Positions 39,945-47,902 of a stretch of 64,000 nt of DNA are shown one piece after another. This stretch comes from an uncultured Bdellovibrionales bacterium. Lineage in GTDB: Bacteria; Myxococcota; XYA12-FULL-58-9; JALHOP01. Under the pieces are notes generated by a model. The model saw nothing but the letters and a program-made list of their open reading frames with translations. It did not search any database and was not told the origin of the DNA. Both the position numbers and the translations under genes were made by a program. How positions within the stretch are numbered: the stretch's first letter is position 1; the number at the start of each line of letters is the position of its first letter. The stretch covers positions 285,510 through 349,509 of the forward strand of contig CAZAER010000001.1 in the NCBI GenBank assembly GCA_964484195.1, given 5' to 3'.

Positions 39945-40424
39945 TCACGCTGTCTTGGGGCGTGCGATGGCAGCGACTGTGGCCGATGCTGCGCGCACGT
40001 AGTCGTCTGGTGCGAGCAGGATTTGTGTGCCTCGGACTCCTGCGGAAATGCTGATGAGGTCGAAGAGGACCACCATCTCGTCGACGAACACCGGATAGGC
40101 TTTCTTGGCCGCGAACACGGTGACGCCGCCGCGGATGTAACCGGTGAGTGGCTGGACCTCCTTCAACGGTACGGTGTCTGCTTTGGTGTTCCCACTGGCC
40201 TTCGCCACCAACTTACGGTCGAGCTCGTAGCTCCCAGGAATGACCGCGAAGAAGATGCCGGTGACGTCACCGCGGACGACGAGGGTCTTGAACGTCGCTT
40301 CGGGAGGCATGCCGACCTTGCGGGCCACGGACTCGGCCGAGAGGTCCTCTTCGTCGACCTCGTAGGAGCGCAGAGTGTAGGCGATGCCCTTCACGTCGAG
40401 GGCTCGCATGGCATTGGTTTTCAC
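39945..40424 (-). CDS. ybaK: Cys-tRNA(Pro)/Cys-tRNA(Cys) deacylase YbaK
   Basis: [23 protein letters not shown] aligns with the E. coli YbaK N-terminus. A GTG start at 40424 overlaps the upstream stop (GTGA). TTG at 40439 and ATG at 40409 are alternative starts. Confidence 0.75.
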
Positions 40425-41785
40425 GACGTCGGCTCGCAATCGATGGCGTTCTTTGCCGAGCGGCGGCCGTTACCTTGTGGATTCACCCACACCAACACGC
40501 GGTCGACGACATCGCCAGTGAACGCCCGCGGCGGTGCGCACGCGATGCCGGGCGTCGGTAGCGCGGGTTGCGGCCGGTCGGCGCTGACGATGATGCGCAG
40601 GGGCGACGTTGGCGGAGCGGCAGTCAGGGCTCGGGCGAGCTCGTCCGCGTCCGCGTAGCGCTCGAGCGGACGGCCACCGGCGTAGAGCGCGGGGGCTTCG
40701 TAGCCGCCGACGATGAGGATGCGCTGCGCTTTTCCCGCGGTGCGCAGCGGGTCGATGATGTTGTGTTGGCCATCCGAGAGCGTGGCGATGGCGAGCGCCA
40801 CGGCGTTCAGGCCCCAGAAGGCTCTGCGTATCGCCAAGCGCGACTCGGCGAGCGCCGCGCCCAAGAGAACGAACGCGAGCGGCAAGACGGAGAAGACGAA
40901 GCGCTCCTCCTTGTGAGGAACGAGCGAATGAATCGACACGAACGCGACCAGGCTGCTGGTCGTCAGGACATCGGCGCGCGTCGCGTGCCACAACGGCTTT
41001 GCCAACCAGTAGGTGAGCGGCGGCAGGGTCAGCAAGAGGAGGAACACGAGATAGGTAAACCACGGCGCATGACCGAAGCGTGACGAGTGCTCGGCATTGA
41101 AGGCGACGTAGTCGGTGAGGGTCGCGAGGAAGCGGCCATGGGACGAGAGATCTATAAGTCCTTGCATAAGCAAGATCGCGACCCCGCCAACCGCCATCGC
41201 GGACGCGTCTTTGATGCGGCGCTCCCACAGCGCCCAACCCACCGCAGTGATCGCGATGATGCCGACCTGGAAGCGCAACATGCACGCGGCGCCGAGAAGC
41301 AGGCCCGCGACCAAGCCGCGGCGCGGGAGCCGTGTCATCGCGAGCCCCCAGACGAGCGGCGGAATCGCGGCGACCTCGATCAAGGCGCGCGTCGACAGGC
41401 GTGGCACCAGGGCCTCGCAGGCCATGAGCCATGCGGCCGCGCGGGCAGCCGGCTCACCGAATCGCGACGCCGTGAGACGGTAGACTCCGGGAATCGCGAG
41501 CAGCGACCAGAGCCCGAGCGTGACGTACACCCCGCGCACCAACCAGCTGGGGTCATCGATGCCCAACCCATGCACCCCGCGCATCACCAGCGCGAGGAAG
41601 CGACTGAAGACCACCGAGCGGATGGCGGACGCTGGAGCGGTCTCCCCGGTCATGACCTCCCGCCACGCGGGCTCCAGCGCATAGCGGTAGTCGTCGCTCG
41701 CGAAAAATCCATACCCGATGAGCGCTGCCACGAGGCGTAGCACCGCGCCGGCGAGGAGCGGCGGAAGCCAAGGCGGGTGCTTCAT
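40421..41785 (-). CDS. GT-C fold membrane glycosyltransferase (ArnT/PMT/GT87-like polyprenyl-phosphate-sugar dependent transferase)
   Basis: Multi-TM protein with an acidic first-loop motif FASDDYRYALEP typical of GT-C transferases. ATG at 41785 overlaps the upstream stop (ATGA). The ORF-track N-terminal extension to 42457 is an Arg-rich overlap with the upstream gene and is rejected. Confidence 0.6.
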   Translation of the reverse strand: MKHPPWLPPLLAGAVLRLVAALIGYGFFASDDYRYALEPAWREVMTGETAPASAIRSVVFSRFLALVMRGVHGLGIDDPSWLVRGVYVTLGLWSLLAIPGVYRLTASRFGEPAARAAAWLMACEALVPRLSTRALIEVAAIPPLVWGLAMTRLPRRGLVAGLLLGAACMLRFQVGIIAITAVGWALWERRIKDASAMAVGGVAILLMQGLIDLSSHGRFLATLTDYVAFNAEHSSRFGHAPWFTYLVFLLLLTLPPLTYWLAKPLWHATRADVLTTSSLVAFVSIHSLVPHKEERFVFSVLPLAFVLLGAALAESRLAIRRAFWGLNAVALAIATLSDGQHNIIDPLRTAGKAQRILIVGGYEAPALYAGGRPLERYADADELARALTAAPPTSPLRIIVSADRPQPALPTPGIACAPPRAFTGDVVDRVLVWVNPQGNGRRSAKNAIDCEPTS

Positions 41786-42657
41786 CGGTGAAAGGTCGGG
41801 GCGACGTCGGGAGAATCGGGAGGGCTCGCCGGTCCGGGGAAGATCTCGCGCAGGTACCCTTCGATGCCGCGCTCGTTGTTCCACTGCCTGGCCATGCCGA
41901 GCGAGACTTCCTCGAAGCGCACGCCATCGCGCCACTCGGTGGAGCGGATGTGCAGGTGACCATAGACCACGCAGGCTACCGAGAAGCGCTTGTGCCAGTG
42001 GCGGGTGCGCGTGGTGCCGCACCAAAGCGAGAAGCGCTCGATGAGGCGTAGGCGCACGATCTCGCGCACCAGCGGGAAGTGGCCCACGACGACCAGCGAC
42101 GCATCGCGACTCGCTTGGCGCAAACGTTCTTCGGTCAGCTCGCAGCGCGCCGCACACCAAGCCTGGCGGGTCGCGAACGGATCGGGACGCAGGTAAAACT
42201 CGTCGGCGCTGACCACGTTGGTCTCGGCGGCCCACTGCACCGCGTCCGCTTCGGCGACATCGTCGGGGCGAAACGAGTAATCGAAGAGCGTGAAGATCGG
42301 CGCGATGCGCACCGGTCCCTGCGTGATCCCCGTAGGGCCTGGCCACAATGGGTAGGGGTCCTCGGGCGTCAGCACGCCATAGCGGCGGGCGAGCTCGACC
42401 AGGGCCTCGTACTTCGCGACGCCTTTCAGGGGGACGTCGTTCTCGTTGGTGGACCACAGCTCGTGATTGCCGGGGGTCCAGATGACCTTGGCGAAGCGTG
42501 CGGTGAGCACCCTCCAGGCGTGCTCGACTTGCTCGAGCTTCTCGGCGACGTCACCACCGACGATCAACCAATCGTCGAGGTGAGCCGGCAACATCTCGAG
42601 CGCCGCGCGGTTAGTCGCGACGCCGAGATGTAAATCGCTGATGGCGAGGAGGCGCAC
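41782..42657 (-). CDS. Metallophosphoesterase (calcineurin-like)
   Basis: ISDLHLG, GGDV, GNHE and HFPLV metal-ligand motifs. Confidence 0.75.
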   Translation of the reverse strand: MRLLAISDLHLGVATNRAALEMLPAHLDDWLIVGGDVAEKLEQVEHAWRVLTARFAKVIWTPGNHELWSTNENDVPLKGVAKYEALVELARRYGVLTPEDPYPLWPGPTGITQGPVRIAPIFTLFDYSFRPDDVAEADAVQWAAETNVVSADEFYLRPDPFATRQAWCAARCELTEERLRQASRDASLVVVGHFPLVREIVRLRLIERFSLWCGTTRTRHWHKRFSVACVVYGHLHIRSTEWRDGVRFEEVSLGMARQWNNERGIEGYLREIFPGPASPPDSPDVAPTFHR

Positions 42658-42690
42658 CTCTCTTCAATACGCCATCGCGTCGGGCGCGGC

Positions 42691-43041
42691 CTAGTAGGCC
42701 GACTCGACCTTGAAGATCACGGGTACGCTGACGCCGTTCTCGAGCTTCACCATCGCTGGGTTGTCGCCACTCGGGAGCGTCGCCATGAGCACGCGGTACG
42801 CGTCGACCGGCGCTCCACGACCGCGCGAAGCGACGTGTGACACCGGATAGGCCTTGCCTCCGACGGTGACCGATTTCGGCGCCGACGCCCAAGGGCCGGG
42901 TAGCACCGTGAGGTGCGGGCCGTCCTTGATGACGCCGTTCGGGTCCGGGAAGAAGGTCTGGTGCACCGGAATGCTGCGAGGCTGCACAGAGACGGCGGAT
43001 TGCGCGGCGGTCGCTGCCGCGTACAAGCGCGAGATCAGCAT
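42691..43041 (-). CDS. Small secreted protein, tandem paralog A (116 aa)
   Basis: Shares SPVS.TV.GK...V.H.ASRGRG.A...Y.V....L.DG.HSA.VKLENGV.V.I...V.SA with the neighbour. N-terminal hydrophobic, signal-like segment. Confidence 0.5.
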   Translation of the reverse strand: MLISRLYAAATAAQSAVSVQPRSIPVHQTFFPDPNGVIKDGPHLTVLPGPWASAPKSVTVGGKAYPVSHVASRGRGAPVDAYRVLMATLPSGDNPAMVKLENGVSVPVIFKVESAY

Positions 43042-43083
43042 GGATTGGCTCTCAGAGAATGGTGGGTTGTCGGAACGGACGCT

Positions 43084-43422
43084 CTAGTCGTGGGCCGAGC
43101 GGACGTTGAGGACGATTTTGACCTCGACGCCGTTCTCGAGCTTCACCGTCGCGCTGTGCAGACCGTCGCGGAGACGCGGCACGGTCACGGTGTACGAGTT
43201 GAACGCCTTGCCACGGCCGCGCGACGCGGTGTGCGTCACCGCGAGGGTCTTGCCGTCGACGGTGAGTGACACCGGTGACGCCGCCCAGCCTTCGCCGAGG
43301 TTGATGGTGGTGGCGAACTTCTTGCCCGGGCCGGGCATGAGGTTCTGGTTCACGTTGATGGTACGTACAACGATGGAGGTGGCGGCAAACGCTGCAGATC
43401 CCTGCACACGCGCGGTATTCAT
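43084..43422 (-). CDS. Small secreted protein, tandem paralog B (112 aa)
   Basis: See paralog A. The conserved core is TASRGRGKAF...VKLENGVEV. Confidence 0.5.
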   Translation of the reverse strand: MNTARVQGSAAFAATSIVVRTINVNQNLMPGPGKKFATTINLGEGWAASPVSLTVDGKTLAVTHTASRGRGKAFNSYTVTVPRLRDGLHSATVKLENGVEVKIVLNVRSAHD

Positions 43423-43568
43423 GGCTCGTTACCTTGGAAAGCTGCCCTGGTGGTGGGCGAGAAAAGTTGGTGGGATTTAAAGAAACAGGAAGGAGCTACA
43501 TCGTCGCCGGATTGGCGCGTCGGGTTGCGTAAATCGAGGGTTTCGCTCGCGGAACCAGCGACGGACGA

Positions 43569-45359
43569 TCAGTGCGCAGCGGTCGCCAAAGCGGTCTGCT
43601 CTTCCGGTGACGCCACCGCGCTCGCGTTCTCGGGCAGCAGCTCGACCCAGAAGACCGACCCACGAGGGTTGCCGGCGTCGACGCCGACCTGGCCGCGCAT
43701 CGCTTCGGTGAGGTGTTTCACGATGGCAAGGCCGAGACCGGTTCCGCCCATGGCACGCGAGCGACCTTCGTCGACGCGGTAGAAGCGCTCGAAGATGCGC
43801 GTGCGGTGCCGCGGCTCGATGCCGGGGCCGTCGTCGGTGACCTCGATGCGCACACCGTCCTCGATGACCTTGGCGCGGACGACGATGGTGCCGCCGCTCG
43901 GCGTGTACTTCACGGCGTTGTCGACGAGGTTCATGAGGACCTGATCGAGGGCGCGCGGGTCCGCCAAAGCGCGCAGGGTGGCGTCACCCTCGGCGCGCAG
44001 CGAGAGCTTCTTCTGCTCGGCGGCGATGGCGACCGATTCGACGGCGCGGTCGATGGCGGTGCGCACCGCGACCGGGCCGGGCTCGAGCTTGTAGGCGCCG
44101 GCTTCGATGCGCGAGATGTCGAGGAGGTCGGCGACGAGCTGGGAGAGACGGTCGGCGCTCCGCGAAAGCGCATCGAGAAACTTCGGCGCTTGTTTCGGAT
44201 CTGCGAGGGCGCCGTCGATGAGAGTCTCGACGTTGGCGCGGATGATGCTGACCGGCGTGCGCAGCTCGTGGGAGACGTTGGCGACGAAGTCACGACGGAT
44301 GGTCTCCAGGCGGCGAAGATCGGTCACGTCGTGCAAGACGATGACGAGGCCGCCGGTGGCTCGCAGCGGCGTCGCGCGCGCCATGACGCGCTTGGGCTTG
44401 GGGCCGTGCAGCTCGAACTCGGTGCCGTGCGAGACCTTGTCTTGCGCATCTTTGACCAGCTCGATGAGCGCGGGGGCGCGGACGACCTCGACCAATGTCC
44501 GCCCGCTCGGCGGCGAGGTGAGGCGCAAGAGCGAGAGCGCTGCCTTGTTGACCAGGGTGATGCGTTCCTCGGAGTCGAGGGCGATGACCGCTTCACTCAT
44601 GCTCTCGAGGGTCGCTTCGAAGCGATTGCGCTCCTGTGCCAAAGTGCCGACGGTGCGCTCGAGCTCTTCGGCGAGCTGATTGAAGGAACCGGCGATGCCG
44701 CCGAGCTCGTCCGTGCCTTGGACGGAGAGGCGCCGCCCCGTGGGGCCCGAGAAGACGTTACGGGCGCTCTCGACCAGGTTGCGGAGGGCTCGCGACATGA
44801 GGTGCGACGCCAGGGTGCTCATGAACACCGCGACCAAAAGGCTCGCGAGCGAGGCGAACACGATCAGTCCGCGTAAGCGGCCGACGGCGCCTTCGATCTC
44901 GGCGGCTGGCATGGCGATGCGGATGACGCACGGTCCGCTTTGGCAATCGGCGCGCACCGCGACGTAGATCATCTCACGCCGCGCGGTCACCGACCGACGC
45001 TGCGCCTGACCGTTACCGTTTTCGAACGCCTCGCGAACTTCCGGGCGGTCGCCGTGATTGGCGAGAGTCTCTGGATCGAGCACCGAATCGCCGAGCACCC
45101 GTCCGTCATCGTCGATGATGGTGACGCGCGCCAAGGTTGCTTCCCCGAGCTCGCGGCTGAGGAGCTTCAAGTCGACATCCGACGGCGCGCGCTCGATGAG
45201 CATGCGCGCGGTGTTTGCCGAGGCGCGCAAGTCTTCGTCGAGCCGTGCCCGATACCAACCGCGCGTCTCGCGCTCGAGAATGATCGAGCTGGCGCCGCCG
45301 ATGAGCAGGATCAACGCGATGGAGATGCCGAACAGCTTGCCGCGGATGCCGAATTTCAA
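43569..45359 (-). CDS. Sensor histidine kinase (periplasmic sensor, HAMP, PAS, HisKA, HATPase_c; PhoR-like)
   Basis: TTG start with an SD-like GTGAGG. Two TM helices flank a periplasmic domain. H-box VANVSHELRTP. N, G1 and G2 boxes are present. Confidence 0.85.
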   Translation of the reverse strand: MKFGIRGKLFGISIALILLIGGASSIILERETRGWYRARLDEDLRASANTARMLIERAPSDVDLKLLSRELGEATLARVTIIDDDGRVLGDSVLDPETLANHGDRPEVREAFENGNGQAQRRSVTARREMIYVAVRADCQSGPCVIRIAMPAAEIEGAVGRLRGLIVFASLASLLVAVFMSTLASHLMSRALRNLVESARNVFSGPTGRRLSVQGTDELGGIAGSFNQLAEELERTVGTLAQERNRFEATLESMSEAVIALDSEERITLVNKAALSLLRLTSPPSGRTLVEVVRAPALIELVKDAQDKVSHGTEFELHGPKPKRVMARATPLRATGGLVIVLHDVTDLRRLETIRRDFVANVSHELRTPVSIIRANVETLIDGALADPKQAPKFLDALSRSADRLSQLVADLLDISRIEAGAYKLEPGPVAVRTAIDRAVESVAIAAEQKKLSLRAEGDATLRALADPRALDQVLMNLVDNAVKYTPSGGTIVVRAKVIEDGVRIEVTDDGPGIEPRHRTRIFERFYRVDEGRSRAMGGTGLGLAIVKHLTEAMRGQVGVDAGNPRGSVFWVELLPENASAVASPEEQTALATAAH

Positions 45360-45377
45360 GGCACGGGCCTCACTCGC

Positions 45378-46088
45378 TTAGTTCTCTGCCGAAACCTCAT
45401 CGGGCCGTTGTCGAAAGCGATAGCCTACACCACGGAGCGTTTCCACGTAGTGTCCGGCGATGCCCAGCTTTTCGCGCAGGCGTTTCACGTGGGTGTCGAC
45501 GGTGCGGGTCGTGACCTCCGCGTCGATTCCCCAAACGTCGGAGAGCAGAGTGTCGCGCGTCTGCACCCGACCCTTGCGGGCGAGCAGGGTGGTGAGCAGC
45601 CGGAACTCGAGGGCGGTGAGTCGGATCTCTTCTTCGCCGACCCAGACGCGGTGACCCGGCGAATCGACCCGCAGGTCGCCGAACCGTAGCTCGGTGTCCT
45701 TGGGCTCGTCGGCGGCGACACGGCGGAGGATGGCGCGCACCCGCAGCATCAGCTCACGGACGCTGAAAGGTTTGGCGACGAAGTCATCGGCCCCGACCTC
45801 GAAGCCGACGACGCGATCGATCTCGTCGTTCTTGGCGGTCAGCATGAGCACCGGGATGCCCTTGGTGCGCTCGTCGGCGCGCAGGCGGCGGCAGACTTCG
45901 GTGCCGGGCACGTCAGGGAGCATGAGGTCCAAGACCACGAGGTCGGGGAGGGGCTCTTGCCCCGCGAGGCTCAGTGCGCTCGTGCCGTTCAGCGCCGTGC
46001 GGGTCTGAAACCCCTCGCGCTGGAAGTTGTATTCGAGCGTATTGGCGAGGTCCTGCTCGTCTTCGACCACCAAAATCAGTGCCGACAT
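45378..46088 (-). CDS. OmpR/PhoB-family response regulator
   Basis: Receiver domain (LVVLDLMLPD) plus a winged-helix domain (RVDTHVKRLREKL, GVGYRF). ATG at 46088 has a GGGAGG RBS. The ORF-track extension is rejected. Confidence 0.85.
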   Translation of the reverse strand: MSALILVVEDEQDLANTLEYNFQREGFQTRTALNGTSALSLAGQEPLPDLVVLDLMLPDVPGTEVCRRLRADERTKGIPVLMLTAKNDEIDRVVGFEVGADDFVAKPFSVRELMLRVRAILRRVAADEPKDTELRFGDLRVDSPGHRVWVGEEEIRLTALEFRLLTTLLARKGRVQTRDTLLSDVWGIDAEVTTRTVDTHVKRLREKLGIAGHYVETLRGVGYRFRQRPDEVSAEN

Positions 46089-46258
46089 GCTTGCCTCCCG
46101 GAAGGCGCTTTCAGGGCTTTCCTGCGCCCCAATTGCCCGTTCGCGGTGACGCCTTTGTGACAGCGGAACAACGTCTTGGGACGCTGCGATCGTCTCTGTC
46201 ACATTGACCAGAACGTCTTATAGAGCCTTCGTACCGTTCCGGAAAGGCTCGAAGACCT

Positions 46259-46570
46259 CTATTGCCGCCGCTGAGGCATCGGGACGACGTTTCCGCCGCC
46301 GAAGTCGACCTTGGAAATGTGGCAGGAATCGGGATGCCGGATGAGCTCGGCCATCGCCGACCGTTGGTCTGCCGCGTTCAAGCCGGTGACGTTGAGGGTT
46401 CGGGTCGCTTGGTCGTAACGGACGCTCTTGGGGTCGACGTCGCCACCGCGCATGATGTCCCCGAAGTGCTTGTTGGCGTTCTGAACTGGGGTGCCAGCCC
46501 CCGGCCAGCCAGCGGTCGAGCCACCCAACGGGGCGCCCAGCTGGGCAAGCGGCTTACAGGAATCACTCAC
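46259..46570 (-). CDS. Hypothetical small protein (104 aa) immediately downstream of purA
   Basis: GGAGG RBS 5 nt upstream of a GTG start. No known domain. Confidence 0.4.
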   Translation of the reverse strand: MSDSCKPLAQLGAPLGGSTAGWPGAGTPVQNANKHFGDIMRGGDVDPKSVRYDQATRTLNVTGLNAADQRSAMAELIRHPDSCHISKVDFGGGNVVPMPQRRQ

Positions 46571-46621
46571 GGGGACCTCCAGAAACAACGCCCGATCTTA
46601 CACGATCTTGGCTCGATACGG

Positions 46622-47902
<1,281 letters not shown>

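Follow-up and report, generated by a model that had tools for sequence, protein, structure and literature searches.

Two adjacent open reading frames (ORFs), here called A and B, lie on the minus strand of the 64,000-nt stretch of DNA that was analysed (the window), between a two-component system and genes for a metallophosphoesterase, a GT-C glycosyltransferase and a YbaK-type deacylase (Table 1). The coordinates and lengths of the two ORFs are exactly those given in the initial annotation, and the flanking genes are as stated there, with Pfam domains in agreement. A and B are the only two copies of their family within the window. Their paralogy is well above chance level (BLASTP, 41% identity across 99 residues, E 1e-22), which bears out the tandem paralogous pair recognised earlier.

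Table 1. Genes and non-coding features at the A–B locus (window positions).
Feature	Position	Strand	Description
ORF A	43084-43422	minus	112 aa; residues 1-16 predicted disordered N-terminal tail (MNTARVQGSAAFAA), residues 20-110 predicted Ig-like sandwich
ORF B	42691-43041	minus	116 aa; paralogue of A, identical predicted seven-strand topology
Kinase	43569-45359	minus	sCache-like, HAMP, PAS, HisKA, HATPase (Pfam); upstream of A
OmpR-family regulator	45378-46088	minus	Pfam; upstream of kinase
Metallophosphoesterase (Metallophos)	41782-42657	minus	starts 33 nt past ORF B
GT22 / GT-C glycosyltransferase (Glyco_transf_22)	40421-41785	minus	
YbaK-type deacylase (tRNA_edit)	39945-40439	minus	
Conserved non-coding block	43466-43536	minus	GATTYACGCAAC ... 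CGACGACGATTGTAGCTCCTTCCTGTTTCTC ... AATCCCACCAAC; in the 146-nt kinase–A spacer
AACCCACCAT motif	43059-43068	minus	in the 42-nt A–B spacer, upstream of B
AATCCCACCA motif	43468-43477	minus	upstream of A

Among NCBIfam models, the kinase is matched best by PnpS, WalK and PhoR, and the regulator by PhoB, in each case with a score under the curated cut-off (TIGR02966 PhoR, 299.7 vs. 334.2; PnpS, 351 vs. 400; TIGR02154 PhoB, 243.7 vs. 296.2). With a domain architecture that fits PhoR/PhoB and scores under the equivalog cut-offs, "PhoR-like" seems a fair label for the kinase. Between the response-regulator gene and purA lies an ORF of 109 aa (46259-46588, minus strand) that matches nothing in Pfam or NCBIfam; small unannotated genes are found at the same position in the related loci L001 (103 aa) and L007 (128 aa), but the gene in L005 (143 aa) is on the opposite strand. 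On the other side of the pair, the longest local frame, at 40421-42457 (minus strand, 678 aa), crosses the phosphoesterase gene in another frame. GT22 as called in related loci has 454 aa, and its first 4 nt overlap the end of the phosphoesterase gene, so raw ORF length is misleading in such GC-rich DNA.

Coding status and distribution of the family

Many long spurious ORFs arise here from the high-GC DNA (window G+C ~66%), and neither A nor B has a strong Shine-Dalgarno sequence at its start, as might be expected of chance open frames that are not genes. Against this, in-frame GC3 is 85% in A and 84% in B, similar to the kinase and phosphoesterase genes. Orthologues occur in several lineages and have dN/dS (Nei-Gojobori) of 0.20–0.48 for A and 0.14–0.24 for B, and the predicted folds of the two proteins are confident and mutually consistent. 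The probability that the frames are spurious is next to nil, this view being effectively refuted by dN/dS and the predicted folds. A and B are real genes under purifying selection. Maintenance of both copies by selection had been proposed from synonymous divergence between the paralogues; it is supported by the dN/dS between orthologues (0.14–0.48), which is a better basis.

The stop-to-stop frames leave little room 5' of the ATG codons (2 codons in A; 14 codons, none of them a start, in B), so that the N-termini are as read and longer forms are impossible. A and B share a reading frame in the window, where one TAG and 13 codons separate them, and they are also in-frame in L005 (10001-10714). 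A fusion of A and B by stop-codon read-through was rejected, the frame being common to the window and L005 and not to L007.

Both proteins diverge quickly. Between the window and L005 or L007, A and B are 69–72% identical, and the neighbouring proteins reach 97–98% (regulator), 92–94% (kinase), 84–90% (phosphoesterase), 79% (GT22), 87% (YbaK) and 96% (PurA). A and B are the fastest-evolving genes of the region 39945-47899, though their dN/dS stays below 0.5.

Pfam and NCBIfam gave no matches to A or B even at E up to 10. Comparison of 22 aligned members with Pfam, NCBIfam, PHROGs and PADLOC yielded a scatter of matches, none of them better than E 0.016, and nothing usable was obtained in a sequence profile search of PDB chains (best E 0.085). 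The curated libraries and the PDB profile search being empty, the pair belongs to no family that could be named from them, in agreement with the initial annotation.

A word-indexed search of 5.8 billion clusters returned eight A-type clusters at 69–100% identity and six B-type clusters, an exhaustive phmmer search of 1.84 billion representatives gave 17 matches, about half of them artefacts, and a search with the 22-member profile added three further members. The genuine family comprises ~25 clusters, mostly of stand-alone proteins of 105–115 aa; in two longer members, P0029 (184 aa) and P0022 (269 aa), the domain is C-terminal. All named members are entered as "hypothetical protein [Myxococcota bacterium]". 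A single locus, in a Myxococcota MAG, was found among 185,579 species-representative genomes, and no match was found in JGI metagenomes (two scans) or viral contigs (one scan). P0013 (B-type) and P0026 come from one MAG, and hence such genomes carry a third, dispersed paralogue. The family is very small, uncurated and confined to uncultured Myxococcota.

The artefacts among the phmmer matches concern likeness to known repeats. The matches include giant repeat proteins (P0015, P0016, P0023–P0025, and P0027) with E-values down to 1e-18, and in some of the giant matches, including P0016, P0023, and P0027, Pfam identifies Flg_new, Ig, PKD, and fn3 repeats. The Listeria-Bacteroides repeat (PF09479, Flg_new) thus appears similar in the single-sequence search, with whole-protein E-values to 1e-18. 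On rescoring, the giant proteins give 5–17 bits per repeat and per-domain E-values (i-E-values) far above 1, and all but one of the matches are lost with the family profile. No repeat unit is individually significant, and the likeness, which arises by summation over T/V/G-rich beta repeats, is an artefact and does not reflect homology. The possibility that A and B are fragments of a larger known domain family was rejected, because the E-values of the giant proteins are sums of insignificant repeats.

Predicted fold and conserved positions

AlphaFold2 models were built for both proteins from a 21-sequence family alignment (A, pLDDT 78.6 and pTM 0.63; B, pLDDT 81.2 and pTM 0.66). Strands are placed at residues 20-27, 37-41, 50-55, 58-67, 74-82, 87-95, and 100-110 of A, the same seven are present in B, and the first 15–16 residues of both models have pLDDT below 50. 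According to these models, A and B are each a stand-alone Ig-like beta-sandwich of ~95 residues and seven strands, preceded by a disordered tail of ~16–20 residues. The models have the two sheets and about seven antiparallel strands of Ig-like/E-set domains and superpose on known Ig-like domains.

The modelled sandwiches appear to have no close structural relative. Closest are stand-alone bacterial Ig-like/TIG/E-set domains, for example the C-terminal domain of MtxA (4z29) and the IPT/TIG domains 2cxk and 3mqi, and also the Ig-like domains of SGBP-B (6e57) and internalin-like lmo2027 (5kzs). The S-R-G-R-G and N-G motifs, together with the Ser/Thr kinase beside one subfamily, prompted a comparison with FHA domains, which are similar in being small beta-sandwiches with Gly-Arg and Asn-Gly loop motifs.

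Archaeal pilins (8q30, 6w8u, 6w8x, and 8fjs) are among the weak structural matches. Donor-strand exchange is the mode of assembly of chaperone-usher pilins and archaeal thread/Aap pili, and the disordered tail before the Ig-like domain, which is conserved in A, could in principle complete the sandwich of a next subunit in a filament. However, the predicted sandwich is already complete at seven strands, with no evident gap, an export signal is absent, and usher, chaperone or pilus genes do not occur in any examined locus. Filament subunits of this kind are therefore very improbable.

The truly conserved columns of the family alignment are R-x-I-x-V...P, L...W...P, G-K-x-Y-x-V, G, and V-x-L-x-N-G-x-x-V-x-V...V. 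In A numbering, P30, L42, W46, P50, G57, K58, V62, G87, V93, L95, N97, G98, V101, and V107 are invariant or near-invariant, the invariant positions being glycines and prolines of turns, a single tryptophan, and valines or leucines of the core. His, Asp, Glu and Cys form no conserved constellation in the alignment, so nothing suggests catalysis or metal binding.

A conserved HxASRGRG core, which the pair was first thought to share, is not supported by the wider family. This segment is the variable hairpin loop between strands 4 and 5, and it is absent in half of the A orthologues and in all distant members. A shorter unrelated loop (e.g., LPTARG) replaces it in the A orthologues P0005–P0008, and both the length and the sequence of the loop vary in distant members. 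The SRGRG loop is common to all B-type proteins and one A clade. Between A and B, synonymous differences are found in three of the six identical-residue codons of the loop (gene-wide pS 0.38), and recent gene conversion between A and B as the source of the loop was rejected, as this fraction is near the gene-wide value. The SRGRG loop is probably the ancestral form, which gave way to another loop in one A clade. HxASRGRG is unsuitable as a family signature.

The two proteins also differ outside this loop. The A tail, MNTARVQGSAAFAA, is near-invariant across A orthologues though it is predicted to be disordered, which points to a linear interaction motif. The B tail is Ala-rich and poorly conserved beyond MLISR, and the strand 1-2 loop is longer in B (GVIKDGPH).

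N-termini and export

Both proteins had been described as small and secreted, with hydrophobic, signal-like N-termini, and Sec export to the periplasm or the exterior would have some features in its favour. The pair evolves quickly compared with its neighbours, a gene for a GT-C enzyme with a periplasm-facing active site lies nearby, and A-type N-termini have R5 followed by ~12 uncharged residues. In a Kyte-Doolittle (KD) scan of the N-termini of 23 members, based on the best eight-residue mean, A scores 2.2 (A-type range 1.9–2.5, borderline for a signal peptide; patch AAFAATSIVV). The rest of the evidence stands against signal peptides. B scores 1.35 (B-type range 0.96–1.48) and distant or other non-A-type members at most 1.8, and the longest strictly hydrophobic run in B-type and distant members is 3–6 residues, which leaves all of these without a hydrophobic core. 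The hydrophobic patch of A runs directly into strand 1, and the stretch from the uncharged patch to the start of strand 1 (R20/R22) contains no AxA-type (small-x-small) site; this arginine is the domain boundary, as set from the C-terminal-domain members P0022 and P0029. In these two proteins the domain follows 85–170 hydrophilic, helical-looking residues with no signal.

Twin-arginine motifs are absent from A and B, which have a single Arg at position 5, and lipoboxes are absent likewise, neither protein containing any cysteine. Signal-like N-termini in both proteins are thus not upheld: B has no h-region, the A patch merges into strand 1, and an upstream extension is impossible. Sec, Tat and lipoprotein signals are all missing by sequence features, a strong indication that the term "secreted" is unsupported, and Sec export of both proteins is unlikely. 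The pair should not be labelled secreted in annotation.

Gene order, possible regulation and role

The order regulator-kinase-A-B-metallophosphoesterase-GT22-YbaK, all on one strand, is found in the window's own genome (L001), L005, and L007; L013 contains A, B, and the beginning of a third gene. Distant members occur singly, in neighbourhoods that are unrelated and lack such a two-component system (L008, L009/L010, L011, L014, and L015). Co-occurrence of the pair with the two-component system, raised in the initial annotation, is therefore found in close relatives (kinase 92–94% identical), and does not extend to distant members, which are located elsewhere. As the lineages sharing the order are very close (regulator 97–98% identical), the synteny has little functional or independent weight. 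The only recurring neighbour among distant members is a Ser/Thr protein kinase, which is tail-to-tail with the P0026/P0033 subfamily (L011 1-2642 and L015 168-1520; kinases 55% identical).

Within the spacer that separates A from the kinase gene, ~65 nt form a block that is near-invariant across four lineages, and the surrounding spacer varies, with indels including one of 20 nt. The block has no match in Rfam, no sigma-70 consensus and no covariation-supported RNA structure; an RNA element was rejected for want of an Rfam match and of covariation support. The region 43466-43536 may be regarded as a candidate promoter or regulator-binding region for A–B. Its 12-nt first part, GATTYACGCAAC, has six matches in the window with up to two mismatches (7.5 expected), the sole exact copy being that upstream of A.

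A second, shorter motif is present in both spacers. AAYCCCACCA has seven matches in the window with up to one mismatch (2.6 expected), three of them exact, including the copy upstream of A, AATCCCACCA. The copy upstream of B, AACCCACCAT, does not fit AAYCCCACCA within one mismatch and was found by alignment; in L013 the motif upstream of A reads AACCCACCAT, as does the copy upstream of B. The occurrence of a CCCACCA-containing motif upstream of both genes suggests that the 5' leader was duplicated along with the gene. A promoter scan of the cluster found none, and a terminator scan found only one terminator-like site, inside the kinase gene, and none between A, B, and the phosphoesterase gene. 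It is a reasonable inference that A–B have their own promoter or regulator site, with possible read-through downstream.

These features could mean that A and B serve the adjacent PhoBR-like system as a regulated output or accessory, induced for example together with the metallophosphoesterase on phosphate limitation, the conserved block being the site of the regulator. Identical order from the response regulator to the phosphoesterase gene in the window (L001), L005, and L007, PnpS/PhoR and PhoB as the best models, a spacer block kept in four lineages, and the lack of a detected terminator along the cluster are all compatible with such a role. On the other hand, the order may be simply inherited among lineages as close as these, distant family members are located away from any such system, the PhoR and PhoB scores are below the curated cut-offs, no Pho-box or promoter consensus is recognisable, and GATTYACGCAAC, from the first half of the block, is no more frequent in the window than expected. 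A regulated output of this type is a possible but doubtful reading.

In the account preferred here, A and B are copies of a duplicated Ig-like module that would serve in binding or as an adaptor, not as an enzyme; they are probably located in the cytoplasm, may act as an A–B pair, and would be expressed from the conserved region that follows the PhoBR-like system. The functional part of this account has about an even chance of being correct, and confidence is much higher in its core, namely that A and B are real genes with an Ig-like fold forming an orphan family. Binding or adaptor activity, as distinct from enzymatic activity, would follow from the fold together with the lack of catalytic residues. 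The proteins would most probably be cytoplasmic and may form a hetero-pair. Its putative contact surfaces would be the strand 4-5 loop, which is variable, and the N-terminal tail of A, which is conserved. A–B would probably be transcribed from the conserved stretch that follows the kinase gene, and the transcript may read on into the phosphoesterase-GT22-YbaK genes.

Two points fit a cytoplasmic adaptor less well. One is the weak uncharged patch of A-type proteins (AAFAATSIVV). The other is the combination of fast evolution and a hypervariable loop, a pattern that typifies proteins which are exposed or involved in conflict more than it does adaptors of the cytoplasm. If A and B were rapidly evolving conflict proteins, for instance orphan immunity proteins or anti-toxin-like ones, this would account for their being small, tandemly duplicated, lineage-restricted and devoid of an export signal, and it would agree with divergence faster than in all neighbours, the variable loop, and the extremely narrow family. 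However, toxin, secretion-system or mobile-element genes do not adjoin the family in any examined locus, PADLOC and PHROGs are empty and no viral contig matches, the pair keeps a stable position between housekeeping-like genes, and dN/dS is well under 1. A conflict role is accordingly quite improbable. Sec-secreted proteins, a Pho-type output, immunity-like proteins, and donor-strand filaments are all weaker explanations than the binding module.

A more specific version of the binding module can be conceived, in which A and B would be a Myxococcota-specific, rapidly evolving Ig-like hetero-pair working with the PhoR-like kinase or with the phosphoesterase and GT-C enzymes, the A tail, MNTARVQGSAAFAA, serving as a docking or non-classical export peptide. 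This is speculative and distinctly unlikely; if true, it would make the pair a small accessory module of a new type, with a role in envelope or phosphate signalling. The subfamily adjacent to Ser/Thr kinases (L011 and L015) would suit a general theme of kinase-associated Ig modules.

A and B thus represent a sequence family that is new and very narrowly distributed and whose fold is very common. The finding raises no long-standing question and points to no new mechanism, its practical result being the correction of the secreted and HxASRGRG labels. Provided that the models hold, the family could deserve a DUF-type entry and would be another orphan sequence family on the ubiquitous Ig-like sandwich, found in few uncultured Myxococcota lineages, and a small example of a duplicated, fast-evolving module next to a conserved signalling and envelope gene cluster.
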